From Candidatus Kaiserbacteria bacterium (lineage in GTDB: Bacteria > Patescibacteriota > Minisyncoccia > Phycocordibacterales > JABAAK01), in the NCBI GenBank assembly GCA_026713605.1, contig JAPOOC010000007.1, positions 1 through 57,417 on the forward strand: a stretch of DNA of 57,417 nucleotides, read 5' to 3'. The notes under the pieces were generated by a model. It ran no database searches. It worked only from the letters and a program-made list of their open reading frames with translations, and was not told the origin of the DNA. Within the stretch, counting starts at the first letter, position 1. Every line of letters starts with the position of its first letter. Made by a program: the position numbers and the translations under genes. Shown in pieces: positions 26,683-57,417 of this stretch.

Positions 26683-28419
26683 ATGGCACAGAACAAAAAA
26701 CAAGAACCTAAGGGTGTAAAATCCGATTCGCCTGTTCAGCAAAACAGCAAGATTACCACGGCAAAAAAAGGGGAGAAAAAAGATGGGGGGAGTAATAAGG
26801 TTGCTCCCGCACAACAACAAGAGACAGTTGATACTGCATCTATTGACGCACTGGGGGCTGATGCATCAGGTGCATTTATACGAAGCGGGGAGGTGGGTAA
26901 AAGTAAGAAAGGCGCGCCGAAGCAAAAAGTTTCTCCTAAAAATCCGCCAGAGAAAACCGCATCAAATAAGAGAGAAGGGTATGCCATACCAGTATTACGA
27001 ACCTATCACCACGACACCAGAAGCATCGCACAGACAAAAGGTGGTGCAGAACTGCGCACCATATTAGCAAAGGAGGCGGAGGAAAAACAACGCGCACGAA
27101 AAGAATATATCAAAAACACCAAAGACATTATGAAAGAGTCGGCGATATTGCGAGATAAGTATAGGAATGTCACGCAGGGAAAGCAAGTACCAGGTGCCAG
27201 TGTAGCAAAACCAGGCGCTGACGGCACTGCCGATGAACAGGAAGACATGATGCGTACACTGTCCAATGCGACCGAATATATGCGGTCCGCACAAGGCAAC
27301 ACGGTGGAGCAGGAAAAAGCACCATCGCAACAGGAGTCAAAAAAGACAGATGTGCCACCAAAGGAAAAATCAAAACAACCAAACCTCACGACACCAACAA
27401 CATCTCCGGAAGAGAAAGCGGGTGAGTCCACAGGCAGGCAAGAGCCGGAAGAGCAGATGAAAGAAAAAGAAGGGATATTTGCTCGTGTCTTGGGAAGGGC
27501 GCCTTCAAAGAATATTCTTACACAAGAGCAACGAGAGGAGTTGCGACAAAAACAGCAAGAATCTATTGAAAAAGAAGAGGTCAAAAATGCGTGGAAAAAT
27601 TTCAAACAGAAAAGAAAAAAATTACGAGAAATGGGAATGCGGGCACGAGATGTGCGGTCATACGCTGCATCTCCTGACGGGGAGTCAATACCAAACAAAC
27701 CGCTACAAAGGCAGAATATGCTGTTACTAGCCATTGTTTTTTTCCTCCTCGCCGGACTTCTGTTTTCTGTAATTTTTCTCGCACTGAACCCCACTGAGGA
27801 GCCGACCATCAATAACGCTATCACAACTGGTGCGTCACCAACAGCCGATGTGTTAAGTAGTGAAAATCAGGTGTCTATAGAGGTTACAGGTGCAGCAACA
27901 CTGCCGGATGCATGGCAGTCTATCACTGAAAAAGATGGCGGGCAAGACACGGTAACCAAGTATGTGCCGTACATAACGCAAGGTGAAGAAAAATCACAAC
28001 TCAGTTTTGAAGATTTTTCCCGCTCATTTGGCCCGCGTTTTCCGCCGGGGCTACAGAATGCGTTCAGCGACTATTACTTCGTGGGGAAATACCTGGGAGA
28101 AAGAGAAGCAAGCGGTATATTTATAGCTTCGGTAAAGAGGTACGGTGATGCATTTGTGTGGATGCGCAACTGGGAGAAAAATGCAATCAACGCCCTCTCA
28201 CCCATCTTCCCTGGCATGTTTCGTCAATCTAATATAAATAATGTTACCATTGAATCTCGTGTAATTGACAATCAAGATGTTCGTGTAATACGGAACACAC
28301 TCAGTCAAAATGAGATTCTATACTACTTCTTCGGCCGATCTATTCTGGTATTCATAGCCGGTGAAGAATCTACCATTCCACTTATAAATGCCCGCATCCG
28401 TTCGGCGAATGCTCTGTAG
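26683..28419 (+). CDS. Bitopic membrane protein with long low-complexity N-terminus
   Basis: 578 aa; charged/disordered N-terminal region with an LRTYHHD motif, one TM helix (LLLAIVFFLLAGLLFSVIFLAL), folded C-terminal domain. Confidence 0.75.
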   Translation: MAQNKKQEPKGVKSDSPVQQNSKITTAKKGEKKDGGSNKVAPAQQQETVDTASIDALGADASGAFIRSGEVGKSKKGAPKQKVSPKNPPEKTASNKREGYAIPVLRTYHHDTRSIAQTKGGAELRTILAKEAEEKQRARKEYIKNTKDIMKESAILRDKYRNVTQGKQVPGASVAKPGADGTADEQEDMMRTLSNATEYMRSAQGNTVEQEKAPSQQESKKTDVPPKEKSKQPNLTTPTTSPEEKAGESTGRQEPEEQMKEKEGIFARVLGRAPSKNILTQEQREELRQKQQESIEKEEVKNAWKNFKQKRKKLREMGMRARDVRSYAASPDGESIPNKPLQRQNMLLLAIVFFLLAGLLFSVIFLALNPTEEPTINNAITTGASPTADVLSSENQVSIEVTGAATLPDAWQSITEKDGGQDTVTKYVPYITQGEEKSQLSFEDFSRSFGPRFPPGLQNAFSDYYFVGKYLGEREASGIFIASVKRYGDAFVWMRNWEKNAINALSPIFPGMFRQSNINNVTIESRVIDNQDVRVIRNTLSQNEILYYFFGRSILVFIAGEESTIPLINARIRSANAL

Positions 28420-28473: not shown

Positions 28474-30021
28474 GTGAAGAAAGAAACAGGGAGCACCTTA
28501 CATGCCTACACCTACAGCACGCAGCGAGTTTCACTGGCGGCACGAACAGTGCGGGTTGAGGCAGACATATCACCCGGCATCCACTCATTTTCCATCATTG
28601 GACTCCCGGACAAGGCAGTTGATGAGGCGCGAGAACGGGTCTCTGCAGCAATAAAACACGCCGGCCTCGTATCACCAAAGCGACAGAATCATAAAGTTGT
28701 CGTCTCCCTTGCGCCAGGGGATCTCAAAAAAACAGGCACACTGTTCGATGTGCCGATCGCCCTCACCTACCTACTGGCTATGAAGAATATCCGATGTAAT
28801 CCAGAAAAAAAGATGTTTGTCGGAGAACTGGCACTGGACGGCAGTATCCAGCAAACACAGGGCATCCTGCCAATCGTGCAGCATGCAAAGAAAAACAGTT
28901 TTGAAGAAGTGTATATCCCTGCAGGTAACACCGAAGAGGCGACACTGATCGACGGGATACACATCATCCCATGCAAATCACTACAGGAACTCATCGCCCA
29001 CCTACAGTCCGAGACATCCATACCGCCGGTGGTGCCTTCGTATGTTCCTGCCGACCGCACGCATCACTACATCGGCTTCGAGTACATTAAAGGGCAGGAA
29101 AGTGTAAAGCGGGCACTCACCGTTGCTGGCGCAGGTGGGCATAATGTAGCACTATACGGACCGCCGGGTACCGGAAAAACATTACTGGCAAAAGCACTCA
29201 TTAGTATCCTCCCACCACTAACAAAAGATGAATGTGTTGAAGTAACCGCCCTGCACTCCATATCCCACAACGCTCCCTCTGCGCCAATGAAGGTGCCACC
29301 ATTTCGCAGCCCACATCATACTTCCTCATACGCATCAATAACCGGTGGTGGCGCGGCACTACGCCCAGGGGAAATATCTTTAGCACATCGTGGGGTACTT
29401 TTTCTAGACGAATTTCCTGAATTTGATCGACGAGTTATTGAGTCGTTACGAGAGCCGCTCGAAGAGCACGCCATCACGGTTACCAGAGCAAGCGGATCAG
29501 TCAGTTTCCCCGCATCGTGCATTTTAGCTATCGCATTTAACTTATGTCCATGTGGCAATACCGGCACCGACAGGATGTGCTCCTGCTCACCATCTGCGAA
29601 GGCGTCGTATCGTCGAAAGCTCACCGGTCCCATCACCGATCGCATTGATGTGTGGGTTTCAGTAGAGGCGAGTGGCTTTGATGATCTGGAGAAAAAACAA
29701 GCACCACAGAACACCGAACAATCTCATGCGGTCAAAATAGCAGTACGCAAGGCACGAGAGATGCAGATCAAGCGGTACACAGACACACATATTCATTTGA
29801 ACAGTGAAGCCGACGCACGAATCATTGAAAGCCATCTCGCCATGCCACCAGAGTCAGTGTCTGTTTTGCAGTCCGCAGCAACAAAACTATCGCTATCACC
29901 GCGTGGCTACCATCGCACGATCAAGTGTGCGAGGACCATCGCCGATTTAGCAGAAAGTACAAACATTCTCCCTGATCATATACTGGAGGCAGTAACCTAC
30001 CGAACACCGCCGGTAGAGTGA
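28474..30021 (+). CDS. comM: YifB/ComM Mg-chelatase-like AAA+ ATPase
   Basis: IIGLPDKAVDEARERV, GELALDG, GPPGTGKT, GEISLAHRGVLFLDEFPEF. GTG 28474 is preferred (ATG 28456 is an alternative). Confidence 0.93.
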   Translation: MKKETGSTLHAYTYSTQRVSLAARTVRVEADISPGIHSFSIIGLPDKAVDEARERVSAAIKHAGLVSPKRQNHKVVVSLAPGDLKKTGTLFDVPIALTYLLAMKNIRCNPEKKMFVGELALDGSIQQTQGILPIVQHAKKNSFEEVYIPAGNTEEATLIDGIHIIPCKSLQELIAHLQSETSIPPVVPSYVPADRTHHYIGFEYIKGQESVKRALTVAGAGGHNVALYGPPGTGKTLLAKALISILPPLTKDECVEVTALHSISHNAPSAPMKVPPFRSPHHTSSYASITGGGAALRPGEISLAHRGVLFLDEFPEFDRRVIESLREPLEEHAITVTRASGSVSFPASCILAIAFNLCPCGNTGTDRMCSCSPSAKASYRRKLTGPITDRIDVWVSVEASGFDDLEKKQAPQNTEQSHAVKIAVRKAREMQIKRYTDTHIHLNSEADARIIESHLAMPPESVSVLQSAATKLSLSPRGYHRTIKCARTIADLAESTNILPDHILEAVTYRTPPVE

Positions 30022-30068
30022 GTTTTGGTGGCGTATGGTTTGCAAAAATAGGGTGGTATTATGAAAAC

Positions 30069-32141
30069 ATGAGACCTTCCTCTACCCAGGGTTTTACACT
30101 CATTGAGATGATTGTCGCTATTGGATTGGCAAGCATTGTACTAACCGCGTTGCTGAGCTTTTTTACTGCTTTTATTGGGCATCAAGCGCGAGTGCAAGAC
30201 GAGCGGATCGCACTTGAAACCGTTCGATTTTTTTTCTCTGAACTATCGCGTGAAACCTACTTCGGATACGATTACACTTGTGGGCAGGATGTTGGGGGTG
30301 AGTGTCGCTGTTTAGCATTCACCGATCAATCAGGGAAGCGGGTAAAAGTTTGGTATGACAGTACAAACAAGCAGGTAAAACGAGCAGTAAAATTATTTGA
30401 CGCAAATCCAAATGTGTGCAGTTCTGCTGACGGGTGGGTACCATTTACCGATAACGCCGTCTCAGTGACAAAACTCGCATTTGAATTAGAAAGTAATGCA
30501 ACAAAGCAACCACGCATACAGGCGCAAATTGATGCGGAATATGTTGTTGATAACAATACAGAGCGTGTCTCATTCAAAACACAAATTACCAATCGTATAC
30601 TTGAGCCAAATCAAAATGTCTTAAACACTTTCGTTGCAGGATCCGAAAGTGAAAACACCGCCGTCATACATCACTATGCCTACGGTCCAAGGATAAATGG
30701 GTCAGGACAGTATCTGGGCAAAGGCAGCACCGTCGTGACTGATGCAAAAGATGCTGAGGTTGTGTGTCGTGACGGAGCAGGAAATGTATTCTTGGACAGT
30801 TTTTGTGAAAAAAGTGTGCAAATAACAATGGTTGAAATGACAAGTGACGGACTATACATACTCGGTAACAACGGACTGCTATTCTTCATGCCGCAAGCGT
30901 CCATTGATGACGCGCTGAAAGCGAGTGGTGGTGTCAATGGTGGAAATCCGGTGTATAAGGTGTCATCAGATATACAAAATACCATTGTGCGAGTGCTGGG
31001 GAAGAGGTTCGGCAGCACAAACTGTCGCTTTTGTGCAAACGACCCAAGAAGTATCACCTCAATCCACACTGCTGGCAATTACCTGTATGCACGATCATAC
31101 AACGGGGCACTCTATAGAGTTGAAAACACTTCCGCTGTTCGTATTATGGCGGGTGGTGTAAATAAAAACACCGTGCGACGCATAGATAGCAATGCTAATC
31201 GAGTACTTGTGTACTTTAGAGACGCTGTAGGCAACCGAACGGTCCGTCTATTCAGTGGCGATAGCAGTATCAGCACAAGTGACATTATCGGCGGATGTAG
31301 CGAATTTGCGTATGTGCCGAGAGATTCCATGAGCAGCCGATGCCGACAACTGTATCCAGATCCAAACATAAACAATGGAGTTGCCATTACACCAAACGAC
31401 ATTAGTAGCATCTCTTTCAGATTCCTTGACGCACTACAGGTTATCAATGACACGATTTCACTCTGGTATCGAGATGGTACCGGTAAACATGTGGTATCAG
31501 TCGGTCAGGGAGCGACAAAACTGAAGCGGAGTGATGCGATTGCCGACAGCAGCACTTTCGTGTACGGCAACGGGTTGAATAAATATACCGCGATATGCAG
31601 CGGCGGTACCGGTCTTTGCGCCATGAATACCATAACCGACGCCACCCCCACCATGGTCACAACAAGCAACGCATCACCACTCATTGACCACCTCCACTTT
31701 AAAGGTCTCCCCATAGCCATCAATGAAAACGGGCGGTTAGTATACTTCAGTGGTGTGGCGGCATCTGACACCACAACCGAAATTTCGGTGTACAACAAAA
31801 ATGGCACAGTAGAGAACACGCAACGGATACTCTGCGATACAACCATACTCAATAATCAACAGGTCGTCTTAAAAACACTTTCCAGCAGGCATCCAAATAA
31901 AGATATTGTGGCTGCAACAGGAAGATCTCTCATTACTGGATATGTTGACGAGGTATATCTTCTGGAGCCAACAACTACCACAAAAGAGCAGTATGCAGGA
32001 ACAGAGTTAAACATCGTCTGCAGCGACACAGATCACATAGAGCGATACCATCTCCCAAAAACAACAGGACCAGCAGGTGGTCTGGATATACTCCGACTCC
32101 ACGGTGTGGAGTTTTGGGAAAAAAAGCCAGCAAAACCATAA
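30069..32141 (+). CDS. Type IV prepilin (PilW-like) with large C-terminal beta-rich extension
   Basis: Class III signal G|FTLIEMIVAI; about 175-aa pilin domain followed by about 500 aa with blade-like repeats. Confidence 0.85.
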   Translation: MRPSSTQGFTLIEMIVAIGLASIVLTALLSFFTAFIGHQARVQDERIALETVRFFFSELSRETYFGYDYTCGQDVGGECRCLAFTDQSGKRVKVWYDSTNKQVKRAVKLFDANPNVCSSADGWVPFTDNAVSVTKLAFELESNATKQPRIQAQIDAEYVVDNNTERVSFKTQITNRILEPNQNVLNTFVAGSESENTAVIHHYAYGPRINGSGQYLGKGSTVVTDAKDAEVVCRDGAGNVFLDSFCEKSVQITMVEMTSDGLYILGNNGLLFFMPQASIDDALKASGGVNGGNPVYKVSSDIQNTIVRVLGKRFGSTNCRFCANDPRSITSIHTAGNYLYARSYNGALYRVENTSAVRIMAGGVNKNTVRRIDSNANRVLVYFRDAVGNRTVRLFSGDSSISTSDIIGGCSEFAYVPRDSMSSRCRQLYPDPNINNGVAITPNDISSISFRFLDALQVINDTISLWYRDGTGKHVVSVGQGATKLKRSDAIADSSTFVYGNGLNKYTAICSGGTGLCAMNTITDATPTMVTTSNASPLIDHLHFKGLPIAINENGRLVYFSGVAASDTTTEISVYNKNGTVENTQRILCDTTILNNQQVVLKTLSSRHPNKDIVAATGRSLITGYVDEVYLLEPTTTTKEQYAGTELNIVCSDTDHIERYHLPKTTGPAGGLDILRLHGVEFWEKKPAKP

Positions 32142-33054: not shown

Positions 33055-34036
33055 TTCTTTCTGGAGCAGATTGCCACGACCATTTTTTGCACTTGCGCCA
33101 ATGGCAGATGTGACGGATGTGTCGTTTCGGGCAATGTTTGCAAAGTACGGTAAACCAGATGTGTTCTGGACAGAGTTTGTGTCTGCTGATGGATTGTGCT
33201 CACCCGGTCGGGAAGCATTACAGATTGATTTGCTATTCGAGGAAGCGCAACGGCCAATTGTCGCACAGCTATTCACCAGCAAGCCGGAAAATATGTACAC
33301 CGCAGGAATGCTGGTGAAAGAACTTGGTTTTGATGGACTGGATATTAATATGGGGTGCCCTGATCGGAAGATTGAAAAGCAGGGGTGCGGATGCGACATG
33401 ATCAGAAACCCCGAAACGGCAGTTGCCATAATACACGCAGCGCAACAGACGGGATTGCCAGTATCAGTAAAAACCAGAATCGGTTACAACCATGATGAAA
33501 TTGATGTATGGGTACCGACCCTTCTGCAGACAGGAATTACTGCCTTATCAATGCACTTGCGAACCAGAAAAGAAATGTCAAAAGTGCCGGCACACTGGGA
33601 GTATATGCGTCGCATTGTCGCATTGCGAGATGATCTTGCGCCGGAAACCCTCATCGTTGGTAACGGCGATGTGGTGAACAGGGCGGACGGCGAACGAAAA
33701 GCGCAGGAAAGTGGCTGTGACGGCATCATGATCGGACGAGGCATCTTCGGCAATCCGTGGCTCTTTAACAAAACAACTTCTCGAGATGATCTGTCAATTA
33801 CAGAGCGACTGCAGGTGGTGGTAGAACACACAAAATGCTTTGAAGAAAAATTGCCAATGAAATCATTCAACCTAATGAAGAAACACTACAAAGCATACAT
33901 AGAGGGTTTTGACGGCGCAAAAGAACTTCGCACAAAACTAATGGAAGAGGCAAAAACCGCTGCTGATGTTGAACGAAGTATAAAGGCATTTCTCAGCAAC
34001 AAGCAAGACAGTTACGCAGTGTCATCAGATGGTTGA
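33041..34036 (+). CDS. dus: tRNA-dihydrouridine synthase
   Basis: [42 protein letters not shown]. Confidence 0.95.
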
Positions 34037-34584
34037 GGTTTTTCCGACTGCTCCGACGGTGTTTCTGCTGCCACCTGCTGTTGTTTGGTTTCTTGCGCCT
34101 CCTGCTTCGGTCGATCGTCTTGCGGTAGTTCCGATTGCTTCTCCGCTTCAGCACGCTCTTGTTCTTGGCTGTCTGAAACCTCTTGCTGCTGCTTTGGTTC
34201 GGGGACTACAGCATCTTTAATAACGGCAACTGTGTTACGAAGTTTTTCACGGAGCTGTTTTGGTGTCCTACCACGAAGAAAATACAGTTTTGCGCGACGA
34301 GTTTTGACCTGTTGCACAATTTCTATGCGATCTATGGTGGGAGTGTAGAGGGGAAAGATTTTCTCCACAGCAACACCATCAGTACCAACCCGTCGGACGG
34401 TAAAAGTCGCACCTGACTCAATGCCGTGCTTGCGGGCAATGACGGTACCCTCAAAAACCTGTATCCGTGTCTTATCCTTTTCCTGAATCTTCTGGTGAAC
34501 ACGCACGGTGTCTCCTACGCCAAAGACAACAGCACGACGCGCCTGCACATCTATCGGAGCTATTTGTTGATCGGTGAGTATCAT
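34012..34584 (-). CDS. rplS: 50S ribosomal protein L19 with acidic C-terminal tail
   Basis: [37 protein letters not shown]. Confidence 0.96.
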
Positions 34585-34642
34585 AGGAGGTATGATACCA
34601 CAACTACAGAAACGCTACAAGGGATAGTATACTAAACACAGT

Positions 34643-37600
34643 ATGCGCATATACACATCGGTACTAATGGGTGTTCTTATCACCACCGTACTCATTCTCT
34701 CACCTGTCGTTTTTGTAAAGGCATACGGACAGCGTGGATTGTCCTCAACGGAATTTGAAGATCTGGGTAAGCTAGGCATTAGACCGACCGCAATGACACT
34801 TGGAGATATAAAAGAAGTATATTTTGAAGATAACTTTGAATTCGTTAACTCTGAATACAATATTGTACTGTTCCGAATCCCTGTTAATACTGTGGACTGC
34901 AGTGAAATACAACCAGAGCAAGACCTTAAAAATAATTTTTTTTATGTAAAATATTTAGGAAGCGAAGAAAGCAAAGACCTTGCCGATATGGGAATTCCAA
35001 AAGTTGAAGTGTATAGAGTGTTCTTTCGGAATCCTGAAGATGATAAACTCAATACAACACTCAAGTCACACTTTTATGACACTGTAGATATTGACTTGTG
35101 GGGAAGAGTTGACAAGAATTCACCTTGTGATTCTGATAACAAAAAGAGCGGAACGAAGGGGGTAACACAGCTTGGGATAGATTTAGATAACTTTTATGAA
35201 GAAGATATAGAGTATAAAAAGAATGATTGTGAGATTGAAGTTAACGAGTTTGAGGATAGTGCTGCGTGGTTAGATATCCCCAATAACTGTTTTAGGAATG
35301 CAGAAAAATCAGGAGCACATATAACAAAGGTAGATATAGAATTACCAAAGGAAATCACCGATAAAATTAAAATTAAGCCCCGCGATGGAACCAACAAGAG
35401 GTTTATCAAAATAACAGATGCTCCTGAAGTGACAAAAAGAGGGGACGCAGAAAGTAAATATACTATAAATTTTTCAGCACATTATTGTGTCAAAAATATT
35501 AATGAAGTTACAAAAAAAGGTGATCCCGCAGAGCCTGATCACGATAAATGCACCACAGCACCAGAAACAAAAGACGGAGTAATAACAGTCATAGTAAAAA
35601 ATACCTATGACGAACCGAAAGTGACGGGTTGTGCCCAACCTGACCCAAGGTGTGGTTCGGCAACAGCGGCGGTGTCCGGATCGAGTTGCTTCACAGGGAC
35701 AGGATTAAACATTAATCCATCGGATGAAGAAGTTCCAAGCCTTTCCATCGGACTGGGCGGAGATGCGACACAGGAGTATAAGGCATGTAATACACACCCC
35801 CGCAGGGGAAAGATATGCGCAGGTCCGGCAACAATAACATTCAGAAATTTACGAGACGGACAGGGATGCACAACAACACCAGGAATTGAAAAACCGGTAA
35901 ATATAAAGATTGATGTAACAACCGGGCCAGAAGGAAGAGACATAGACATAATTGGAAACAAGGTTCGATCAATAACATTCACCGCAAGTGATACGAACAG
36001 AAACAGTCCTCTCTGGAGACATTGGTACCTAGCAAGAAAAAAGAAAGATGGCTATTTTCAGTTTGTAGCGTGCAACAAGGAAAACATCGCCAGCTGGGAT
36101 TCAGGTACCGCTGGACAGAGTGTCACACTGGATGAAGAGGGAGACAATAATGCGTATGTGTGTTTTGGAGCGAAGGAAGGAGAAGAGGAGTATTATTTGG
36201 GTAGAAAATATAGTGCGGTTATAGATACCCAAACCTACAACAGAGATGTCAGCTTTGCCGTTGCAGGGGCACCATCTAACCCATGGCTTACCGTATCTGG
36301 TACAGCAGAGCCAAGCGCAACGGTTGAGGTCGTCAAGGTAACAAGTAATGAAATTACCGTACCGCAGGAAAGCAACATCGTCACTGCCAGTCCAGCAACC
36401 GGTGTGTGGAGCACGATCATAACCAACGCTATAAACCCAGATCAAGACACTAATCTTGCCGTTGTAACAAGAGTAAGCGATGGATTACACGAGGTTGTGC
36501 AAACACACAAGACCACCATTCCGAGCAACCCAACCGGAGGCCCGCCACCCCCGCCTCCAGAGACAGAGACGGGAGACACCACTGGTGACGATACGAGTGG
36601 TGGAGGCGGGGGTGGTAGCACAGGAGAGGACACTAATCCGCAGGACACCAATCCGCAACGAGATAGACAACCCCCATTCACCATCAGGGCGGATACAAAC
36701 AGCATCACCGAAGGGGCAAGTATTACTTGGACTGTCACAAAAGGAGAAGATGCAACGACAGCAGGCGCCACTGTCTCTTGCACAGAGCAGGGTGAGTGGG
36801 GAGCAACACCGCTGGAGAAAAAGGTGTCCATACAAACTGCTGGCAACACTACATCTTTCACAATGAAAACCGCTGATGACGAAACTGTTGAGTCAGTAGG
36901 CAGTATTACCTGTTCTGTTACTGGCAGTCGGTATATCGTAAAGGTTTTCAGTAACGACAAAGATTCAGGATTAATTGTGGATTGCACATTCGGCTCTGAA
37001 AAAGATGAAACAGGTAGAAAGGAGAAAGAGCAGTGCGGTATCAAGCACTTATTCCAATTAGCAAATAACATAATGAAACTCCTACTATGGCTTGCGATTA
37101 CCGGAGCGGGGATATTGCTTTTCTACAAGGGGGCGAGATTGGCAATCAATGTGTTTGTGAAAGGCGGTGATCAGCAGGCGAGAAAAGATATGCAGAGTGC
37201 ACTAAAAGCAATTGCTTTCGGCTTATTATTCGTCCTCAGCGCCTATCTCATCGTCAAAGCCGGATTTGACATCATCGGGTACAACCTCAATGGCGGTAAT
37301 CCATTCGTGTGGAATGAATCATCACTACAAACTCCAGAAGTGCCAGAGCCGGCAAGACAGGAACCGCCTGCAAACCCAAGCACTGCAGGAACCCAACCAC
37401 AACAGCCAGAACCAGTCGGCACCCTCTCACCCATTGAGGAGCCACAGCCACCAGAAGAAGAGCAACAACCAACTGCAGCACAGGAAACCGAGAAATGTGT
37501 GAGAAGGGTGAATGGCGAACTTAAAAAAATAGATTGCACCTGCACAAACTGCACAACCCTCACCCGCATAACCACCAAAAATAAAAACAAAGTACATGCT

Positions 37601-37972
37601 GATCTTGCGGAAAAATTATACGAGCTAAACGAAACAGCAGGTTTGAAGAGTTGGAGGGTAACGGAAGCGTGGCCAACAACATCAAGTCATAGCGGCGACT
37701 GCCACTATGTGGGTACTTGCGTTGATATTAATTTCATCAAGGTATCTCCAGACGACCTTCCAAGTGACGATGAAATAGCAAGCTTTATTGTGGCAGCCGA
37801 AGACGCTGGCTTGTTTGCGGTGTGGGAAACAAGGGACAGTAGTCGTGTAGCAGCGCTGCAGTCACGAAGTGATATTGAAGATAAAAATATCCAAGACTAC
37901 GAGGTACCTGACCATTTTTCTGTATATGATTGCAGTTTACCAGAACCTCCAAGGTTGTGTTCTGCCCCATAA
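34643..37972 (+). CDS. Giant CPR pilin-domain surface protein with Ig/Calx-beta-like domains and a C-terminal Hedgehog/M15-like Zn domain
   Basis: Signal peptide; Ig-like LTVSGTAEPSATVEV; Calx-beta-like SITEG...TADDETVE; two-TM pilin at about 36968-37282; RVTEAW...CHYVGTCVDI...DHFSV. Confidence 0.8.
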   Translation: MRIYTSVLMGVLITTVLILSPVVFVKAYGQRGLSSTEFEDLGKLGIRPTAMTLGDIKEVYFEDNFEFVNSEYNIVLFRIPVNTVDCSEIQPEQDLKNNFFYVKYLGSEESKDLADMGIPKVEVYRVFFRNPEDDKLNTTLKSHFYDTVDIDLWGRVDKNSPCDSDNKKSGTKGVTQLGIDLDNFYEEDIEYKKNDCEIEVNEFEDSAAWLDIPNNCFRNAEKSGAHITKVDIELPKEITDKIKIKPRDGTNKRFIKITDAPEVTKRGDAESKYTINFSAHYCVKNINEVTKKGDPAEPDHDKCTTAPETKDGVITVIVKNTYDEPKVTGCAQPDPRCGSATAAVSGSSCFTGTGLNINPSDEEVPSLSIGLGGDATQEYKACNTHPRRGKICAGPATITFRNLRDGQGCTTTPGIEKPVNIKIDVTTGPEGRDIDIIGNKVRSITFTASDTNRNSPLWRHWYLARKKKDGYFQFVACNKENIASWDSGTAGQSVTLDEEGDNNAYVCFGAKEGEEEYYLGRKYSAVIDTQTYNRDVSFAVAGAPSNPWLTVSGTAEPSATVEVVKVTSNEITVPQESNIVTASPATGVWSTIITNAINPDQDTNLAVVTRVSDGLHEVVQTHKTTIPSNPTGGPPPPPPETETGDTTGDDTSGGGGGGSTGEDTNPQDTNPQRDRQPPFTIRADTNSITEGASITWTVTKGEDATTAGATVSCTEQGEWGATPLEKKVSIQTAGNTTSFTMKTADDETVESVGSITCSVTGSRYIVKVFSNDKDSGLIVDCTFGSEKDETGRKEKEQCGIKHLFQLANNIMKLLLWLAITGAGILLFYKGARLAINVFVKGGDQQARKDMQSALKAIAFGLLFVLSAYLIVKAGFDIIGYNLNGGNPFVWNESSLQTPEVPEPARQEPPANPSTAGTQPQQPEPVGTLSPIEEPQPPEEEQQPTAAQETEKCVRRVNGELKKIDCTCTNCTTLTRITTKNKNKVHADLAEKLYELNETAGLKSWRVTEAWPTTSSHSGDCHYVGTCVDINFIKVSPDDLPSDDEIASFIVAAEDAGLFAVWETRDSSRVAALQSRSDIEDKNIQDYEVPDHFSVYDCSLPEPPRLCSAP
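36628..36657 (+). repeat. Short coding tandem repeat (DTNPQ x2) in a Pro/Gly linker
   Basis: GACACTAATCCGCAG-GACACCAATCCGCAA. Confidence 0.7.
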
Positions 37973-37978
37973 AAGGTG

Positions 37979-38094
37979 TGCTATACTACCTCTAACGAAG
38001 TTAATCCGCAGGGTTTTCTTTGTCCCACAAAAAAATTGGACAAAGATGATGCTGTGTGATATTGTTTCGTTAACGGGGCACAGAAAAGAATACT
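37979..38094 (+). promoter_or_regulatory. Extended -10 promoter and structured 5' leader of the rpsN operon
   Basis: TGcTATACT at 37979-37987. Nested inverted repeats TAACGAA/TTCGTTA (37993-37999/38066-38072) and TCTTTGTCC/GGACAAAGA (38017-38025/38038-38046). Confidence 0.6.
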
Positions 38095-38364
38095 ATGGCA
38101 AGAAAATCACTCATAGCGCGCAACCAAAAAAGAATACAGTTGGCACAAAAATACGCAAAAAAACGAGCGCAACTCAAGGCAGCAGGCGATTGGGAGGGGC
38201 TACAGAAACTGCCGAAAAATGCTTCTCCGGTACGGATCCGCAACCGCTGCTTCATAACCGGACGGTCACGCGGGTATATCCGTGCGTTCGGCTTATCACG
38301 GATATGTGTGCGGGAACAGGCACAAAAAGGGTACATACCCGGATTAAAGAAATCATCATGGTAA
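38095..38364 (+). CDS. rpsN: 30S ribosomal protein S14 (89-aa, non-Zn-ribbon type)
   Basis: [19 protein letters not shown]...[16 protein letters not shown]. Confidence 0.97.
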
Positions 38365-38759
38365 TGGTAACAGACAGCATCGCAGATCTCATCACTCGGA
38401 TTAAGAACGCCGGTATGGTGCGTAAAGAAAAGATTGAGATGCCGTATTCCAAAAAGAGAAACAGCATAGCGCAAAAACTGCGTGTCGCGAACTATATTGA
38501 CAATGTTGAGACACAGGGACACGGCATAAAAAAACAACTGATAATCACCCTCGCATACAACGAAGAGGGCAAGCACAAGGTAAAGGATGTAAAGCGAATC
38601 TCCAAGCCGGGACGACGGGTGTATGTCGGCGTACAAGATATTCGCCCGATTCGGAACAACCACGGCACCTTGTTTCTCTCAACGCCGAAAGGAATTTTAA
38701 CTGGAGACGAAGCGCGCAAGGGGCATGTTGGCGGGGAAGCACTTTTTTCAATTTGGTAA
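38364..38759 (+). CDS. rpsH: 30S ribosomal protein S8
   Basis: DSIADLITRIKNA, RISKPGRRVY, LSTPKGILT. Confidence 0.97.
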   Translation: MVTDSIADLITRIKNAGMVRKEKIEMPYSKKRNSIAQKLRVANYIDNVETQGHGIKKQLIITLAYNEEGKHKVKDVKRISKPGRRVYVGVQDIRPIRNNHGTLFLSTPKGILTGDEARKGHVGGEALFSIW

Positions 38760-38760
38760 T

Positions 38761-39303
38761 ATGTCAAGAATAGGATCACAAAAAATAACAATACCAGATG
38801 GTGTACAGGTTTCGTTCCAAGACGGTATATTAACAGTGAAAGGACCAAAAGGGGAGCTAACAAGACAGATGCGGGATGAAATTGCGTTCACCATTGCAGA
38901 CAAAGAGGTAGTGGTAGAGAAAAAAGCAAAAACGCGCCTCGCAAGCGGATTGTGGGGCACTTATGCTTCACACGCAAAAAACATGATTATCGGTGTAACT
39001 GAGGGGTACAAGAAGGAGTTGGAAGTGCGGGGTATTGGGTATCGAGTTGAGATGAAAGGCACACAGTTGGTTCTGAATGTCGGTTTTTCACACCCGGTCG
39101 TGTTTGAGGTACCAGAAGGTTTGCAGGTAAGTGTACAGGATGTTACTATAACTATTGAAGGTTTTGACAAAGAAAAGGTGGGACAGTTCGCCGCACAAGT
39201 GCGACGAGTGAAAAAGCCAGATCCGTATAAAGACAAAGGGGTACGATATGTCGGTGAGGTGGTACGCAGAAAGCAAGGTAAGAAAGCTGAAGCAGCGGCA
39301 TAA
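38761..39303 (+). CDS. rplF: 50S ribosomal protein L6
   Basis: MSRIG, VKGPKGEL, GFSHP, PDPYKDKGVRY. Confidence 0.97.
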   Translation: MSRIGSQKITIPDGVQVSFQDGILTVKGPKGELTRQMRDEIAFTIADKEVVVEKKAKTRLASGLWGTYASHAKNMIIGVTEGYKKELEVRGIGYRVEMKGTQLVLNVGFSHPVVFEVPEGLQVSVQDVTITIEGFDKEKVGQFAAQVRRVKKPDPYKDKGVRYVGEVVRRKQGKKAEAAA

Positions 39304-39313
39304 GAACTATACT

Positions 39314-39664
39314 ATGAAAAAAACAGCACAAAAAGTTTTGGGGAGAATACAGCGGCATCGCCGTATCCGTTCCCGAGTGTCTGGCACACCAGACAAGCCA
39401 CGCCTTGCGTTTTTCCGTTCAAGCAAGCATCTATACGCACAAATCATTGATGACACAGCTGGTCAAACACTCGCCGCAACCTCATCCTTGAAGAGTAACA
39501 AGAAGGGGGCGATAGAAAACGCAAAGCAGATGGGTGCCACAATCGCAGAACAGGCGAAGCAGAAAAAAGTCAAGGAAGTGGTATTTGATCGAGGTGGGTT
39601 TATGTACACCGGTTCGGTGAAAGAGTTTGCTGATGCTGCTCGGGCAGGTGGGTTAGAATTTTAA
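39314..39664 (+). CDS. rplR: 50S ribosomal protein L18
   Basis: PRLAFFRSSKHLYAQIIDD, VVFDRGGFMYTG. Confidence 0.97.
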   Translation: MKKTAQKVLGRIQRHRRIRSRVSGTPDKPRLAFFRSSKHLYAQIIDDTAGQTLAATSSLKSNKKGAIENAKQMGATIAEQAKQKKVKEVVFDRGGFMYTGSVKEFADAARAGGLEF

Positions 39665-39666
39665 CT

Positions 39667-40332
39667 ATGGAAGAAGACACAAGAAAAGCACAACAAGAAA
39701 CAAAGGAGTCCGGAGTAAACGAGGGCGGTGCGGATTCGCAGAAAAAAGAAAATACGCAAAAACCGCAGAGCGAAAGGCGTGGCGGCGGTAGAGGTAGGGA
39801 ACGACAAGGACAGCAAAGAGGGGGCAGAAACGACAAAGATGGTCGCGGGAAAAAGCGACGATCCGCATTCGGGCGATCTGGAAAAGGTCGTGGTGGAGAC
39901 AGGCAAAAGTCAGAATTTGAAACGCGAGTACTCTCCGCACGACGGGTATCTCGCGTAGTCGCAGGGGGGAGGCGATTTAGCTTAAGTGTTGCGGTAGCAG
40001 TGGGTAATCGGAAAGGCAGAGTAGGCATCGGCACAGGAAAAGGGATTGACATGGCAGCCGCCATGGAAAAAGCGCGGAATCAAGCGCAAAAAAATATGGT
40101 TGAAGTGCAAATAACAAATGAGAAAAGTATTCCAAGCGAAGCGGTCGGCAAGTATTGTGCCTCGGTGGTACACATTCGCCCGAGCAGAGGGTTTGTCGCA
40201 GGTGGTGCGGTACGAACCATCGCTGAGCTCGCAGGTGTTGAACGCATCAACGCAAAAATACAATCCCGTAGCAAGTGCCACCTGAACAACGCACGAGCGA
40301 CACTGAAGGCGTTTTCAGTGATGAGCGGATAA
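39667..40332 (+). CDS. rpsE: 30S ribosomal protein S5 with long N-terminal extension
   Basis: RRVSRVVAGGRRFS, GNRKGRVG, AGGAVRTIAELAG. Confidence 0.95.
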   Translation: MEEDTRKAQQETKESGVNEGGADSQKKENTQKPQSERRGGGRGRERQGQQRGGRNDKDGRGKKRRSAFGRSGKGRGGDRQKSEFETRVLSARRVSRVVAGGRRFSLSVAVAVGNRKGRVGIGTGKGIDMAAAMEKARNQAQKNMVEVQITNEKSIPSEAVGKYCASVVHIRPSRGFVAGGAVRTIAELAGVERINAKIQSRSKCHLNNARATLKAFSVMSG

Positions 40333-40787
40333 TGACTACAAAAAGAACCATGCTTCACGAACTCTCAACAAAAAAGAAAAAGAAAAAGAAAATAGGCCGC
40401 GGCGGAGCGCGCGGAGCGAAATCTGGGCGGGGTAACAAGGGACAGCGATCACGCGCAGGGCGGCGTATTCGTCCAGCATTGCGGGATGAATTGGCGCGCA
40501 TACCAAAACGGCGGGGTTACAACAAGAATCGTGCGCGTGGGGTGCGAAATAAAGACGCAGTACGAAGCGTAACTTTGGAAACATTAGAAAAACACTTTCA
40601 GGAAAAAAGTATCATCACACCAAAGGTGCTGACCGACAGAGGAGTTGTCACGAAAATAAAGGGGCGAGTACCGTCAGTGAAAGTTGTTGCACGGGGCAAC
40701 ATCGCCACGCCGATCACAATCAGAAAGTGTGCTGTGTCAGCAGGCGCAAAGCAGAAGATAGAGGCGGCAGGTGGTACAATACAATAG
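40332..40787 (+). CDS. rplO: 50S ribosomal protein L15
   Basis: IGRGGARGAKSGRGNKGQRSRAG, AKQKIEAAGG. Confidence 0.95.
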   Translation: MTTKRTMLHELSTKKKKKKKIGRGGARGAKSGRGNKGQRSRAGRRIRPALRDELARIPKRRGYNKNRARGVRNKDAVRSVTLETLEKHFQEKSIITPKVLTDRGVVTKIKGRVPSVKVVARGNIATPITIRKCAVSAGAKQKIEAAGGTIQ

Positions 40788-40789
40788 AT

Positions 40790-42049
40790 ATGTTCAAAGG
40801 ACTCAAAGCATTCTTTTCTGATCCAGTGCTGCTCAAACGATATGCGGCAGTTATTATCGGCTTAGCAATATTTCGTCTTATAGCATCAGTGCCGATACCA
40901 CAAATTGACCAGTCAACCATCAGTGCACTATTGCACCAGAATCAGATTCTCGGAGCTTTTAACATCTTTTCTGGAGGTGGGCTGTCAAACTTTTCTATTG
41001 CCATGCTCGGCGTGTTTCCATACATCACCGTCTCAATCGTGGTGCAGTTGTTAACGGTGGTATCCACCAAAATACATTCACTCTATCACGAAGAAGGGGA
41101 AATCGGACGGAAAAAAATCGGACAATGGACCCGGATAATTACCGTACCAGTGGCAACAGTAAACGCAATCGGTATTCTGTACTACTTGCAAACACAAGGA
41201 GCGATTACCAATTTGCCCATCCCCGACTTCGCACTGAGTGTGCTGTTTATTGTCGCAGGAACAGTGCTGACAATGTGGATCGGAGAATTGATTACTGAGT
41301 TCGGTGTGGGAAACGGTATATCGTTTATTATCTTTGCCGGGATAGTGATAAATATTCCAACCCTGATAACACAGATGATAACAACCTACTCCCCAGCATT
41401 GGTCGTCTCGTATGTACTCGGCGCAGTCGGCATCCTAATCGGCTGCATGGTTGCGGTGTGGATGAATGAAGCAGACAGACCGATACCCATAACCTATGCT
41501 CGATACGGTATTGGATACGGTTCGGGTGAACGACGGGCAAAAACCTACATCCCTATTAAAGTAAACCCAGTCGGCGTGCTATCAATCATATTCGCATTGA
41601 CAGTAATGGCATTTTTTCAATACGGCTTTAAGTTTCTCGGAGGGCTTGAGGGGTGGGGTGTAGTGCAGGCACTGGGTACGCACATAGATGTCCTGCTGGC
41701 AGACGGCTTCTACTATGCAATACCAGTAGCACTACTCACCCTCTTCTTTACCTACTTTCACGCACCAATTGTCTTTAATACGAAAAAAATTGCTGAAAAC
41801 CTGCAAAACCAAGGAGCATTTATTCCTGGTGTGCGTCCCGGAGAAGAGACCGAGGTATATTTCAAAAAAGTGTTGAAACACATCCTTCTTTATGCAGCGG
41901 TATTTTTGGTCGCTGTCGCAGCATTGCCATATATCATAACCGGTTCAACCACAGGAACCTTTATTTTCGCAATCAGCGGAACTGGTGCGCTCATCATTGT
42001 CCATGTCATATTAGATGTCTGTCGAAAAACAAAGGAGCGAATAAGTTGA
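40790..42049 (+). CDS. secY: Preprotein translocase subunit SecY
   Basis: FSIAMLGVFPYITVSI, GELITEFGVGNGISFIIFAG, GAFIPGVRPG, GTGALIIV. Confidence 0.97.
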   Translation: MFKGLKAFFSDPVLLKRYAAVIIGLAIFRLIASVPIPQIDQSTISALLHQNQILGAFNIFSGGGLSNFSIAMLGVFPYITVSIVVQLLTVVSTKIHSLYHEEGEIGRKKIGQWTRIITVPVATVNAIGILYYLQTQGAITNLPIPDFALSVLFIVAGTVLTMWIGELITEFGVGNGISFIIFAGIVINIPTLITQMITTYSPALVVSYVLGAVGILIGCMVAVWMNEADRPIPITYARYGIGYGSGERRAKTYIPIKVNPVGVLSIIFALTVMAFFQYGFKFLGGLEGWGVVQALGTHIDVLLADGFYYAIPVALLTLFFTYFHAPIVFNTKKIAENLQNQGAFIPGVRPGEETEVYFKKVLKHILLYAAVFLVAVAALPYIITGSTTGTFIFAISGTGALIIVHVILDVCRKTKERIS

Positions 42050-55920: not shown

Positions 55921-56919
55921 ATGCGAATCTCCCTCCTTTTTTTATTCCACAGTATTTTTTTGACGGGATTTTTAATGATCTCCGGTGTGGTGTTTGCGCA
56001 GGGAGAGTATGATGCATACGATATGGTGATAAGCGAATCATATCCATCACCGGGTGAGTATGTTGATTTTACCATCACCTCTAATAAGTCATTTGTATCA
56101 AGTATTCAATCAGTGGCGTGGTACATAGACGGTGTTGAGCAAGTGGCATATGCGAATAAAACGAAAATCACAGAAATTGCCGGAGGTGTACCAAAGCGAA
56201 TTAATGCGCAGATACGCTACTTCAACTCGCGTGGAGAGCGAAAAGCAACAAGCATCGCTCAATGGATTCGTCCAGCCATTTTTGATATTTTGTGGGAGGC
56301 AGATTCAGTAGTCACGCCACTGTATCGGGGGCATCGCCTCGCAGGACCGCAGACACCGATAACTTTTTCAGCAAAAATACAGTATATTGACCAAAATGGT
56401 GTAGTATATACGGAAAAAGATTTTTCATTCCGCTGGATGATTGAGTCACGGTATCATGATGACCGTGGTCCAGGAATGAGTAGTGTGATCTATGAAAAAG
56501 GTGGGAGTTATTTAAACAAGTATATCATTGTGCAAGCAGAAACAACACTCATCAGTAATGGCGAAGTTTCCTTTGAGAAGGTTATCAATGTGCCCATTAT
56601 TGAGCCAAGGTTATTAGTGTATCCGCACACCTTGCTGTACGGACTTTCAAGAGATAGGGTTGTTTCCCAGAACCTTTCCCTCGGCAGCGAAGAAGTAACC
56701 GCTTCAGTATACCCGTTTTATTTCAGTCAGTCCGATTTTACAAAAAATGCGATACAATATAAGTGGTTTGTGAACAACCAGACAAGCCACCTAAAAGAGG
56801 GTAGAAAACTTGACATTTCCATCCAAGGGGGAGGCACTGATATACCTGTTCGCGTATTTGCTCAAAATGAAAACAAGGATTTACAACAATCTACTATTCA
56901 GCTTACTTTTCGTCTGTAG
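55921..56919 (+). CDS. Secreted hypothetical protein with Ig-like beta domains
   Basis: Signal peptide; YPSPGEYV, WYIDG, LWEADS...PLYRG, YKWFVN. Confidence 0.75.
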   Translation: MRISLLFLFHSIFLTGFLMISGVVFAQGEYDAYDMVISESYPSPGEYVDFTITSNKSFVSSIQSVAWYIDGVEQVAYANKTKITEIAGGVPKRINAQIRYFNSRGERKATSIAQWIRPAIFDILWEADSVVTPLYRGHRLAGPQTPITFSAKIQYIDQNGVVYTEKDFSFRWMIESRYHDDRGPGMSSVIYEKGGSYLNKYIIVQAETTLISNGEVSFEKVINVPIIEPRLLVYPHTLLYGLSRDRVVSQNLSLGSEEVTASVYPFYFSQSDFTKNAIQYKWFVNNQTSHLKEGRKLDISIQGGGTDIPVRVFAQNENKDLQQSTIQLTFRL

Positions 56920-57417
56920 TTTTTGTGGGTTATTCGGCGCTGAACTATTTGCGCAACAGCCACCAACCACCACCGCAACAAGCAATGTTGAGAGAGGGGA
57001 GCCGACAACGCTCCATCTGTACAGCACCATATTCGGGGAAGAGAAAAAGATCAAAGCAAGTAGCAGTGATAGAGAGGCGGTGAATCGAACAATTCAAAGA
57101 TTTTTCGGCCGGTTTTTCAGCATCATTTTCACTGTCTCTGGGATGCTCATGGTGATGCTGCTTGCAGTACACGGTACCAAGATGGTATATGCCGAATTCG
57201 GAGGAAATGTTTCCGCTTTTGGTGATGCAAAAAGCAAAGTAAAAGCAGCGGCTATAGGAACCGGCATACTGCTACTCTCATGGGTTATTTTAAACTTCAT
57301 TGACCCTGCGCTCCTACGACCGAAACTGTTTGAAACAATTACAGGACTGCAGGAGGTTGGAAGTGGATCTGAACTATTCTCAAACGATCTTGAAATTCCA
57401 AAAGGCAGTATCACTTT
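56867..57417 (+). CDS. CPR-type two-TM pilin (partial, runs off the right edge; not in ORF track)
   Basis: Manual translation MKTRIYNNLLFSLLFVCSFCGLFGAELFAQ...FFSIIFTVSGMLMVMLLAVHG...AKSKVKAAAIGTGILLLSWVILNFIDPALL is open to the end of the window. Confidence 0.82.
   Translation, partial: MKTRIYNNLLFSLLFVCSFCGLFGAELFAQQPPTTTATSNVERGEPTTLHLYSTIFGEEKKIKASSSDREAVNRTIQRFFGRFFSIIFTVSGMLMVMLLAVHGTKMVYAEFGGNVSAFGDAKSKVKAAAIGTGILLLSWVILNFIDPALLRPKLFETITGLQEVGSGSELFSNDLEIPKGSIT

Follow-up and report, generated by a model that had tools for sequence, protein, structure and literature searches.

The LAS superfamily takes its name from lysostaphin, D-Ala-D-Ala peptidase and Sonic hedgehog (Shh), and it is clan MD of MEROPS. 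Bacterial Hedgehog proteins (bacHh) of Rhizobium, Bradyrhizobium and others are >50% identical to the N-terminal domain of Shh (ShhN) and keep all of its Ca2+ and Zn2+ residues (Roelink 2018, PMC6027127). In Patescibacteria, or candidate phyla radiation (CPR) bacteria, VirB2-like pilins of the Pfam family T4SS_pilin (PF18895) are found in 1,948 assemblies, often in arrays (Quinonero-Coronel 2025, PMC12102498). These bacteria's type IV secretion system (T4SS), of the MPF-FATA type, lies near dnaA, and most of the genomes have no VirB1 (PMC12102498). In S. epibionticum, the T4SS and the pilins are essential and their function is unknown (Wang 2023 PMC10633639, PMC11665869, PMC12857230). Here, we analysed a stretch of DNA of 57,417 nucleotides, hereafter referred to as the window, from Candidatus Kaiserbacteria bacterium (assembly GCA_026713605.1, contig JAPOOC010000007.1). 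It contains a gene for a giant protein of 1109 amino acid residues (aa), in which a VirB2-like pilin hairpin is joined to a C-terminal domain that is predicted to have the LAS/Hedgehog-DD-peptidase fold. The family to which this domain belongs is new, and so is its systematic fusion to a T4SS pilin; the pilin part itself belongs to a known family.

The open reading frame (ORF) runs from 34643 to 37972 on the forward strand, starts with ATG and encodes 1109 aa, in agreement with the earlier note on this DNA. Since the identical protein is found on 3 public contigs, it is no accident of assembly. Giant orthologues of 1080-1305 aa exist; seven giants, including this one, were compared. The layout of the protein was read from hydropathy and directly from the sequence, and the signal peptide, the hairpin of two transmembrane (TM) helices, the Pro/Gln linker and the C-terminal motifs named in the earlier note can all be recognized. 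The protein can be described as composed of the following parts:

34643..37972, + strand: whole gene from the ORF list, giant 1109-aa VirB2-like pilin joined to a predicted Hedgehog/DD-peptidase-fold domain
34643..34729, + strand: signal peptide, aa 1-29, by hydropathy; hydrophobic core 5-27, predicted cleavage between VKA and YG
34730..35602, + strand: distal ectodomain, aa 30-320, hypervariable by comparison with the other giants
35603..36262, + strand: Cys-rich ectodomain region, aa 321-540, with Cys and motifs conserved among giants
36263..36562, + strand: probable Ig-like (Big_6-like) module, aa 541-640, suggested by sub-threshold Big_6 matches
36563..36670, + strand: Gly/Pro/Thr-rich low-complexity spacer, aa 641-676, read from the sequence
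36671..37027, + strand: membrane-proximal conserved module, aa 677-795, possibly a β-sandwich, delimited by identity among giants
37028..37312, + strand: VirB2-like T4SS pilin hairpin (PF18895), aa 796-890; TM1 ~809-829, basic loop, TM2 ~853-880
37313..37492, + strand: Pro/Gln-rich tether, aa 891-950, read from the sequence
37493..37597, + strand: Cys-rich N-terminal extension of the C-terminal domain, aa 951-985, with C952, C965 and C967-x2-C970
37598..37942, + strand: predicted Hedgehog/DD-peptidase (LAS)-fold core, aa 986-1100, from family profile, hhalign, AlphaFold2 and Foldseek

The C-terminal domain comprises aa 951-1109 (~160 aa) and includes SWRVTEAWPTTSSHSGDCHYVGTCVDINF, AAEDAGLFAVWET and EVPDHFSV. 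Sequence searches and a structural model both point to the LAS/Hedgehog-DD-peptidase fold, with Hedgehog N as the nearest solved relative. In a single-sequence phmmer search of all chains in the PDB, Shh ranked first with a non-significant E-value of ~0.2. This match disappeared when a profile of 3 sequences (the protein and its two closest relatives) was used against the PDB, and the single-sequence match is therefore untrustworthy by itself. A profile of 37 family domains gave 25 distinct PDB matches, all of them Hedgehog proteins, with E-values of 1.5e-5 for Shh, 1e-4 for Ihh, 0.01 for Dhh and 0.18 for fly Hh; no M15 peptidase chain appeared at E<=10. Aligned with hhalign, the same profile matched human Shh-N over 84 columns with a probability of 92.7% and E=4e-7. 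The central, aligned portion of the human Shh-N query agrees with the Shh text returned by the PDB search. For comparison, the E. coli peptidases MepK and DdpX gave hhalign probabilities of 0.5% and 0.7%, respectively, and the DdpX alignment covers the local H-x2-G-T-x-[IV]-D zinc motif only. In Pfam, the only match of the 1109-aa protein is a sub-threshold one to T4SS_pilin, and there is none to HH_signal (PF01085) at E<=10. HH_signal is matched by 3 of the 37 family domains with a best E-value of 0.0078, at scores below the Pfam threshold. No M15 family (VanX, M15_2, M15_3, M15_4, VanY) is matched by the domain of the window or by any of the 37. Membership in the Pfam M15 families was rejected on the Pfam and hhalign evidence.

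An AlphaFold2 model of segment 958-1109, built on an alignment of 13 sequences, is confident (pLDDT 85.7, pTM 0.85). It supersedes an earlier AlphaFold model, made with a multiple sequence alignment of 3 sequences, which was poor (pLDDT 65) and had insignificant Foldseek matches. The model consists of strands WRVTE, CVDINF, FAVWET and HFSVY and of two long α-helices, in the same order as in Shh-N. When it was compared with the PDB using Foldseek, ranks 1-11 were Hedgehog N-domains with a probability of 1.00, which aligned with a root mean square deviation of ~3.5 Å over ~100 columns, at 22-25% identity and a TM-score of ~0.45. These were followed by VanXYc (E=0.013), MepA (TMq 0.57), the L-Ala-D-Glu peptidase of phage RB49, VanY and Ply500. 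A Foldseek search of the viral library BFVD returned, more weakly, M15 peptidases of phages as well as peptidase modules from tail proteins. Family profile, hhalign and Foldseek on the confident model thus bear out the Hedgehog/DD-peptidase fold that the earlier note had put forward. That note had also called the domain a bacterial relative close in motif to Hedgehog; it is not close in the sense of bacHh, as it shows 22-26% identity and has neither the Ca2+ site nor the HxH motif.

Conservation of the residues of the putative active site was counted over 193 family domains that cover the whole core, and the residues are located as follows:

37664..37666, + strand: E1008, paired with Shh E127 by HMMER and HH-suite; invariant, 193/193
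37688..37690, + strand: H1016, aligns with Shh H135, putative catalytic His; invariant, 193/193
37703..37705, + strand: H1021, aligns with Shh H141, putative Zn ligand 1; 191/193
37724..37726, + strand: D1028, aligns with Shh D148, putative Zn ligand 2; 193/193
37826..37828, + strand: E1062, one residue off Shh E177 (AVWE vs WVYYE in hhalign), putative general base; 193/193
37913..37915, + strand: H1091, HFSV vs Shh HCSV, putative Zn ligand 3; 192/193

The codons of H1021, D1028 and H1091 lie exactly where they had been placed before. The complete set E1008-H1016-H1021-D1028-E1062-H1091 is present in 190 of the 193 domains. The spacing H1021-x6-D1028, which aligned with H141/D148 of Shh, fits the H-x(3-6)-D zinc motif of the LAS superfamily, and H1021 is bracketed by C1020 and C1026, each found in 191/193. 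H1091, which opens the last β-strand of the AlphaFold2 model, is the putative third Zn ligand, judging by its motif and conservation; between E1062 and H1091, ~25 residues that form a helix and a short strand are inserted. Two members of the family (P0108, P0154) have no H1021. Three others (P0157, P0158, P0159) form a sub-group with another C-terminal end, …INEY…NLH[IV]W, not …VYE…HFSVY. A protein of 2106 aa, P0044, matches, in 10 distinct stretches, only the region of the metal loop (aa 67-104 of a query of 165 aa), and may be a repeat protein of CH..GTCVD-like elements.

Comparison with the Hedgehog N-domain, the sole PDB family matched by the family profile, shows a shared fold and a shared order of elements: a helix, the R-V-T-E strand, H-x5/6-H-x6-D, a second helix, the A-G-[LF]-x-x-V-Y-E strand and H-[FC]-S-V. 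Shh E127, H135, H141, D148, E177 and, putatively, H183 have counterparts. However, identity is ~25%, and the Ca2+ site is mostly absent. The loop that carries E90, E91 and D96 in Shh is a gap, D130 and D132 are replaced by P and by T/P, respectively, and only the equivalent of E127, E1008, is kept. The first His of the HxH motif is missing in ~90% of the members; 20 of the 193 read H-F-H, which restores HxH. In addition to the ~25-residue insertion and the C1020/C1026 pair, the family has a Cys-rich N-terminal extension, predicted as short β-strands, whose CxxC is found in ~81-84% of the 193 domains. There is no Hint or autoprocessing domain and no lipidation context: the protein stops 14 residues past the HFSVY motif, no further Pfam domain was detected, and the domain is instead joined to a bacterial pilin. 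Because the Ca2+ site, the HxH motif and the Hint domain are absent, the domain is not a Hedgehog orthologue but a new LAS/Hedgehog-DD-peptidase family. It differs also from bacHh. Both are C-terminal Hedgehog/DD-peptidase domains carried on larger, membrane-anchored, extracytoplasmic proteins, and both keep the Zn ligands (putative ones in this family) and the E177 equivalent. The traits by which bacHh are recognized are not found here, as identity to Shh is 22-26%, the Ca2+ site is lacking and HxH is read in 20/193 only; moreover, the family is essentially CPR-restricted and is fused specifically to a VirB2-like pilin hairpin.

With M15/LAS peptidases (VanX, VanXY, VanY, MepA, MepK, the phage L-Ala-D-Glu peptidases and Ply500) the family shares the predicted fold and extracytoplasmic location and the zinc motif H-x2-G-x-[AC]-x-D, which was aligned with DdpX. 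Phage versions of M15, too, sit on devices for penetration, for example tape-measure and Gp5 proteins. In contrast to M15, the ExxH/DxxH beside the last His is not conserved, and the invariant Glu of the family lies on the preceding strand, as in Hedgehog. The wall hydrolases of monoderm T4SSs (PrgK, TraG of pIP501, TcpG, CD419/TrsG and VirB1 analogues) would share with the family the role proposed here, in which a membrane-tethered hydrolase cleaves peptidoglycan locally for a T4SS. Their folds (SLT, CHAP and LytM vs LAS/Hedgehog-like) are unrelated, and they are separate proteins, not pilin fusions. Patescibacterial T4SS pilins have in common with the family the signal peptide and the two-TM hairpin, the proximity to virB4, trsD, prgI and dnaA, and the presence of several divergent pilin paralogues per genome. 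The described pilins are treated as small subunits, whereas the hairpin of this family bears a C-terminal enzyme-like domain and, in the 1109-aa protein, a 770-aa N-terminal ectodomain as well. The giant gene of the window also stands outside any T4SS cluster, unlike the described pilins. In the literature searched, we found no description of a pilin fused to a peptidase or Hedgehog-like domain, although other papers are not excluded.

The family was collected by an exhaustive HMMER search of 1.84 billion representatives clustered at 50% identity, which retrieved 459 representatives at E<=1e-3, of which 52 were at E<=1e-10. A word-index search for homologues of the C-terminal domain by itself had given no match. 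The domain has no model in Pfam or NCBIfam. A signal peptide and two TM helices, that is, exactly three hydrophobic segments, precede it in 173 of 233 complete proteins, and the N-terminal hydrophobic segment is present in ~75% of the complete members. The hairpin always comes before the domain, and the flexible linker between them has a median length of 45 aa (interquartile range 35-67) and is rich in G, T, P and S. The earlier note had suggested a survey of pilin and peptidase fusions across CPR genomes; the family collected here is large and shows this layout in about three quarters of its complete members. The spacer between the signal peptide and TM1 has a median of 35 residues and a maximum of 987, and exceeds 500 in eight proteins. 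The 1109-aa protein is the extreme of a continuum and not a separate kind of protein.

A degenerate DNA pattern for T-E-[AG]-[WYF]-P-P-[TS]-x2-H-x3-C-H was also scanned in one genome per species over 185,579 species. It was found in 93 stretches, against ~1 expected by chance as estimated from the information content of the pattern, and 91 of the 93 encode true family members. Most of the 80 records listed carry titles of CPR/Patescibacteria lineages, among them Paceibacterota, Wolfe-, Kaiser-, Zambryski-, Moran-, Falkow-, Doudna-, Sung- and Nomurabacteria and bins labelled Saccharibacteria. The family is essentially confined to CPR/Patescibacteria. Six family-bearing contigs (L001, L008, L010, L057, L059, L075) are titled 'uncultured Gammaproteobacteria' or 'Bdellovibrionales', which are probably bin-level labels. 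In four genomes, a second, secreted copy that lacks the hairpin and consists of a signal peptide and the domain (173-201 aa) comes directly after the fused copy and overlaps its end:

L023 2740-3282: hairpin-less copy
L056 957-1481: hairpin-less copy
L063 3972-4577: hairpin-less copy
L085 6969-7490: hairpin-less copy

Since these copies adjoin fused ones, the domain can work as a free module.

The pilin hairpin is the best conserved region among the giants, with 61-80% identity; the Hedgehog-like core is intermediate (38-58%) and the distal ectodomain is lowest. PF18895 scores 19.2 bits on the whole 1109-aa protein and 24.3 bits (E=3.3e-5) on the isolated hairpin, the gathering threshold being 26.6. 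All seven giants match it, with a best E-value of 1.4e-6, as do 29 of 30 short members (best E=2.9e-13), of which 4 also match TrbC/VirB2. The T4SS pilin identity claimed in the earlier note thus holds at the level of the family, while this protein taken alone stays below the Pfam cutoff. The loop between the TM helices is basic (4 K/R vs 2 D/E). The proposed location of both ends outside the cell fits this loop, the signal peptide, the conserved Cys residues and the Dsb genes found nearby.

The ectodomain, aa 30-795 (~770 aa), carries 18 Cys. Pfam was searched with the whole protein, with four segments and with the seven orthologues, and the PDB with a profile. The distal segment [30-320] has no match in the Pfam or PDB searches and is 13-20% identical to its counterpart in five of the six other giants and 36% in the sixth (P0036). 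In the Cys-rich region [321-540], which has no family match, Cys 330, 337, 477 and 507 are conserved, with C303 just upstream, within the distal segment; motifs conserved there among the giants include CFTGTGL, RNLRD and TLDEEGDN. Segment [541-640] gave a Big_6 match at E=0.043, and 4 of the 7 giants match Big_6 with a best E-value of 0.0024, all below threshold. The Gly/Pro/Thr spacer [641-676] is not conserved among the giants. Segment [677-795] is 51-58% identical in most giants, keeps Cys 713, 757 and 781 among them, and has a sub-threshold match to a NOMO1-like β-sandwich (E=0.052). Of the domain types named in the earlier note, the Cys-rich character is evident, Ig-like modules are weakly suggested by the Big_6 matches, and Calx-beta was rejected as unsupported, since it was matched in no Pfam or PDB search.

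The neighbours of the family were counted in 8-kb windows around the 93 loci. A VirB4-like ATPase is near the family gene in 23 loci, a TrsD / VirB4-N-like protein in 16, PrgI in 11 and dnaA in 20; YidC, RnpA and DnaN are also recurring neighbours. The loci with VirB4, TrsD, PrgI and dnaA match the published Patescibacterial T4SS near dnaA (PMC12102498). A secreted 337-aa protein lies immediately upstream of the family gene in 29 loci, and a 413-aa protein immediately downstream in 31.

The giant gene of the window interrupts a ribosomal-protein cluster (34012-42049), in which L19 is on the minus strand. Upstream are housekeeping genes for a P-type ATPase, UvrC, ThrRS, TopA, MurJ, LepA, PNPase, ComM, Dus and L19; downstream are S14-S8-L6-L18-S5-L15-SecY, GyrB and PheT. 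The identical slot, between L19 and S14, holds an orthologue of 1101 aa in a complete Ca. Paceibacterota chromosome (L062 1-8000, OZ241963.1). The flanking proteins of L062 are 73-93% identical to those of the window and the giant 40%, so the giant evolves much faster than its surroundings; the match also assigns the organism of the window to the Paceibacterota. Scans for promoters and terminators around the giant gene did no better than shuffled controls, and we therefore make no claim of an operon.

Near the end of the window, a second VirB2-like pilin is encoded beside genes for Dsb proteins:

53686-54393, + strand: DsbA-like thioredoxin, directly upstream of the second pilin locus
54454-55158, + strand: DsbA-like thioredoxin, directly upstream of the second pilin locus
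55155-55895, + strand: DsbD-type membrane protein, directly upstream of the second pilin locus
55921..56919, + strand: 332-aa secreted protein, homologue of the 337-aa neighbour (blastp E=3e-21; neighbour clustering)
56867..57417, + strand: start of the second VirB2-like pilin, with a weak PF18895 match; runs off the window and continues at L094 8739-10712

This second pilin has 657 aa, the same signal peptide and hairpin, and an unrelated C-terminal cargo of ~480 aa. It does not match the HMM of the family, and its cargo domain has no family match; we rejected it as a canonical short pilin-peptidase because the cargo differs. It begins ~50 nt before the preceding 332-aa gene ends. Since a second pilin bears an unrelated cargo, the hairpin serves as a modular carrier for various extracellular domains. 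Past the second pilin, on the longer contig, there is a homologue of the 413-aa protein and then a PilB-type ATPase. The DsbA/DsbD set looks like a disulfide-forming module placed beside Cys-rich secreted proteins; together, the conserved Cys pairs and these adjacent genes support an extracytoplasmic location.

Two uncharacterised secreted proteins, one of ~335 aa and the other of ~415-445 aa, are encoded on the two sides of the pilin gene, each in ~30 CPR genomes, and their homologues flank the second pilin of the window too. They belong to no Pfam or NCBIfam family and may be unrecognised components of the apparatus. Examples are:

L092 3766-4779: flanking protein
L083 5501-6742: flanking protein
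L094 10757-12091: flanking protein

A 707-aa protein at 30018-32141 (+ strand) has a methylation motif of type IV pilins at its N-terminus (N_methyl, E=1.6e-6); this giant type IV (pseudo)pilin sits just 2.5 kb upstream of the giant T4SS-type pilin. The ORFs at 26683-28419 (+ strand, 578 aa) and 45242-46621 (+ strand, 459 aa) match no Pfam family at E<=0.01.

We consider, with moderate confidence, that the fusion protein is a T4SS-associated, tethered peptidoglycan peptidase that serves the Patescibacterial T4SS. As to metal binding, catalysis, substrate, pilus incorporation and target wall, we infer the following course. After Sec export, the signal peptide would be cleaved and the two TM helices would sit in the membrane, the basic loop being on the inner side as in VirB2/TraA pilins, or perhaps be part of a T4SS pilus, so that the ectodomain and the enzyme domain would both face the outside of the cell. 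In known pili, VirB2-type pilins point their termini outward; on incorporation of the hairpin into a pilus, the filament would display the enzyme. Otherwise, the tether of ~45-60 residues (up to ~15-20 nm when extended) would let the anchored enzyme reach the cell's own wall. A Zn2+ ion would be held by H1021, D1028 and H1091, E1062 would activate a water molecule, and H1016 would assist by stabilising the transition state. Such a Zn/Glu/His mechanism is established for LAS peptidases and has been proposed for Shh. A disulfide C1020-C1026 would probably staple the metal loop. The likely substrate would be a peptide bond of peptidoglycan, and its cleavage would open the wall locally for the Patescibacterial T4SS or pilus. 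The wall that is cut could be the cell's own, that of the host at the contact site, or both; remodelling of the own wall for T4SS assembly would be at least as likely as the breaching of a host wall. The variable ectodomain would serve as an adhesin or specificity module. The fusion may in this way supply a wall-cutting enzyme that this T4SS appears to lack.

Several points weigh against a T4SS-associated peptidase. The Foldseek E-values are modest (>=2.7e-3, i.e. at least 2.7e-3) at a TM-score of ~0.45. No significant alignment puts H1091 opposite Shh H183 or bridges the ~25-residue insertion, and HFSVY is not paired with Shh HCSVK even in forced global and low-MAC (maximum accuracy) hhalign alignments. 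Whether Hedgehog N, the nearest relative, is an active peptidase is itself disputed, and the conserved 'catalytic' residues are therefore no proof of catalysis. Neither VirB4 nor any other T4SS core gene is present in the 57-kb window or in the 6.5 kb beyond it, where the pilin locus adjoins a T2SSE/PilB-type ATPase instead. Paceibacteria are the one class with VirB1 homologues associated with VirB4 (PMC12102498), so the argument of a missing VirB1 is weaker for this lineage. Finally, appendages of 770 aa and 160 aa are hard to fit into the tight helical packing of VirB2 pili, and the protein may therefore be membrane-anchored only; in the literature searched, we found no demonstration that any Patescibacterial VirB2-like protein polymerises into a pilus.

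A bolder version of the T4SS-associated peptidase, which we think rather unlikely, would be an armed T4SS pilus. The pilins, or a subset at the tip or base, would bear tethered Hedgehog-fold Zn peptidases that cut the host wall, the giants would add a hypervariable adhesin for host specificity, and the family would be a deep bacterial branch of Hedgehog N with the ancestral wall-peptidase activity.

The protein could also be a housekeeping carboxy- or endopeptidase of the wall (VanY, LdcB or MepK-like) that acts in the growth and turnover of the own wall, the hairpin being a mere anchor with no link to a T4SS or pilus. The lack of T4SS core genes near the giant, the ribosomal-protein neighbourhood that is kept in L062, the making of peptidoglycan by the organism (MurJ is encoded in the window), and a tether of ~45 aa, long enough for the own wall, all agree with such an enzyme. 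However, were it a simple anchor, the hairpin should not stand out as the best conserved region (61-80%), nor should it specifically be of the PF18895 type in ~3/4 of the complete members; short members recurrently adjoin VirB4, TrsD and PrgI, and the hypervariable 770-aa ectodomain would be left unexplained. We hold a housekeeping role to be unlikely.

Distinctly unlikely, in our view, is a non-catalytic ligand or adhesin, in which the Zn centre would be structural or a binding surface and the domain would bind a molecule on the host surface. Receptor binding is the established role of the nearest relative, Hedgehog N (PMC6027127), and the domain is accompanied by an ectodomain whose fast evolution is typical of host-interaction proteins. 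A ligand would, however, hardly require that H1016 and E1062, of catalytic type and not metal ligands, be invariant (193/193) along with the conserved metal ligands; such residues have been lost in Drosophila Hh, a protein that signals although it has no peptidase motif (PMC6027127). All the other structural neighbours of the domain are active wall peptidases.

A processing protease that acts in cis, cleaving its own tether or other pilins as TraF processes TrbC, would make of the domain a removable pro-domain. VirB2/TrbC pilins of other systems undergo C-terminal processing, and here the domain always follows the hairpin on a flexible linker. Self-directed, 'cannibalistic' proteolysis is shown by ShhN (PMC6027127). 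Against such a protease, hairpin-less secreted copies lie beside the fused ones in four genomes, and the second pilin has a different cargo and no protease. Moreover, LAS enzymes characteristically cut D-amino-acid or Gly-rich wall peptides, and ordinary protein linkers are not their usual substrates. We regard this role as very unlikely. Lastly, a coincidental resemblance of H-x6-D...H and the Hedgehog-like motifs, in a Cys-rich domain of unrelated fold, could appeal to the single-sequence E-value of ~0.2, the loss of Shh with the 3-sequence profile and the lack of Pfam HH_signal or M15 matches in the protein, but it is effectively refuted by the exclusively Hedgehog matches of the 37-sequence profile (E=1.5e-5), by hhalign (E=4e-7), by an independent fold prediction that finds the same superfamily and by predicted ligands that are near-invariant across the family.

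For its epibiotic life, the one Patescibacterium that is genetically tractable cannot do without the T4SS and the VirB2-like pilin arrays, whose role is described as 'completely unknown' (PMC11665869, PMC10633639). The fusion family described here offers, for the wall-cutting activity that this T4SS appears to lack, a candidate that is concrete and can be tested. As no Pfam or NCBIfam model exists for the domain, hundreds of its proteins are now annotated merely as hypothetical or as pilin. The hairpin as a modular carrier of cargo changes the reading of Patescibacterial 'pilin arrays'. Furthermore, the family adds a divergent bacterial relative with an invariant putative active site to the debate on the peptidase origin and activity of the Zn centre of Hedgehog (PMC6027127, PMC8052667).

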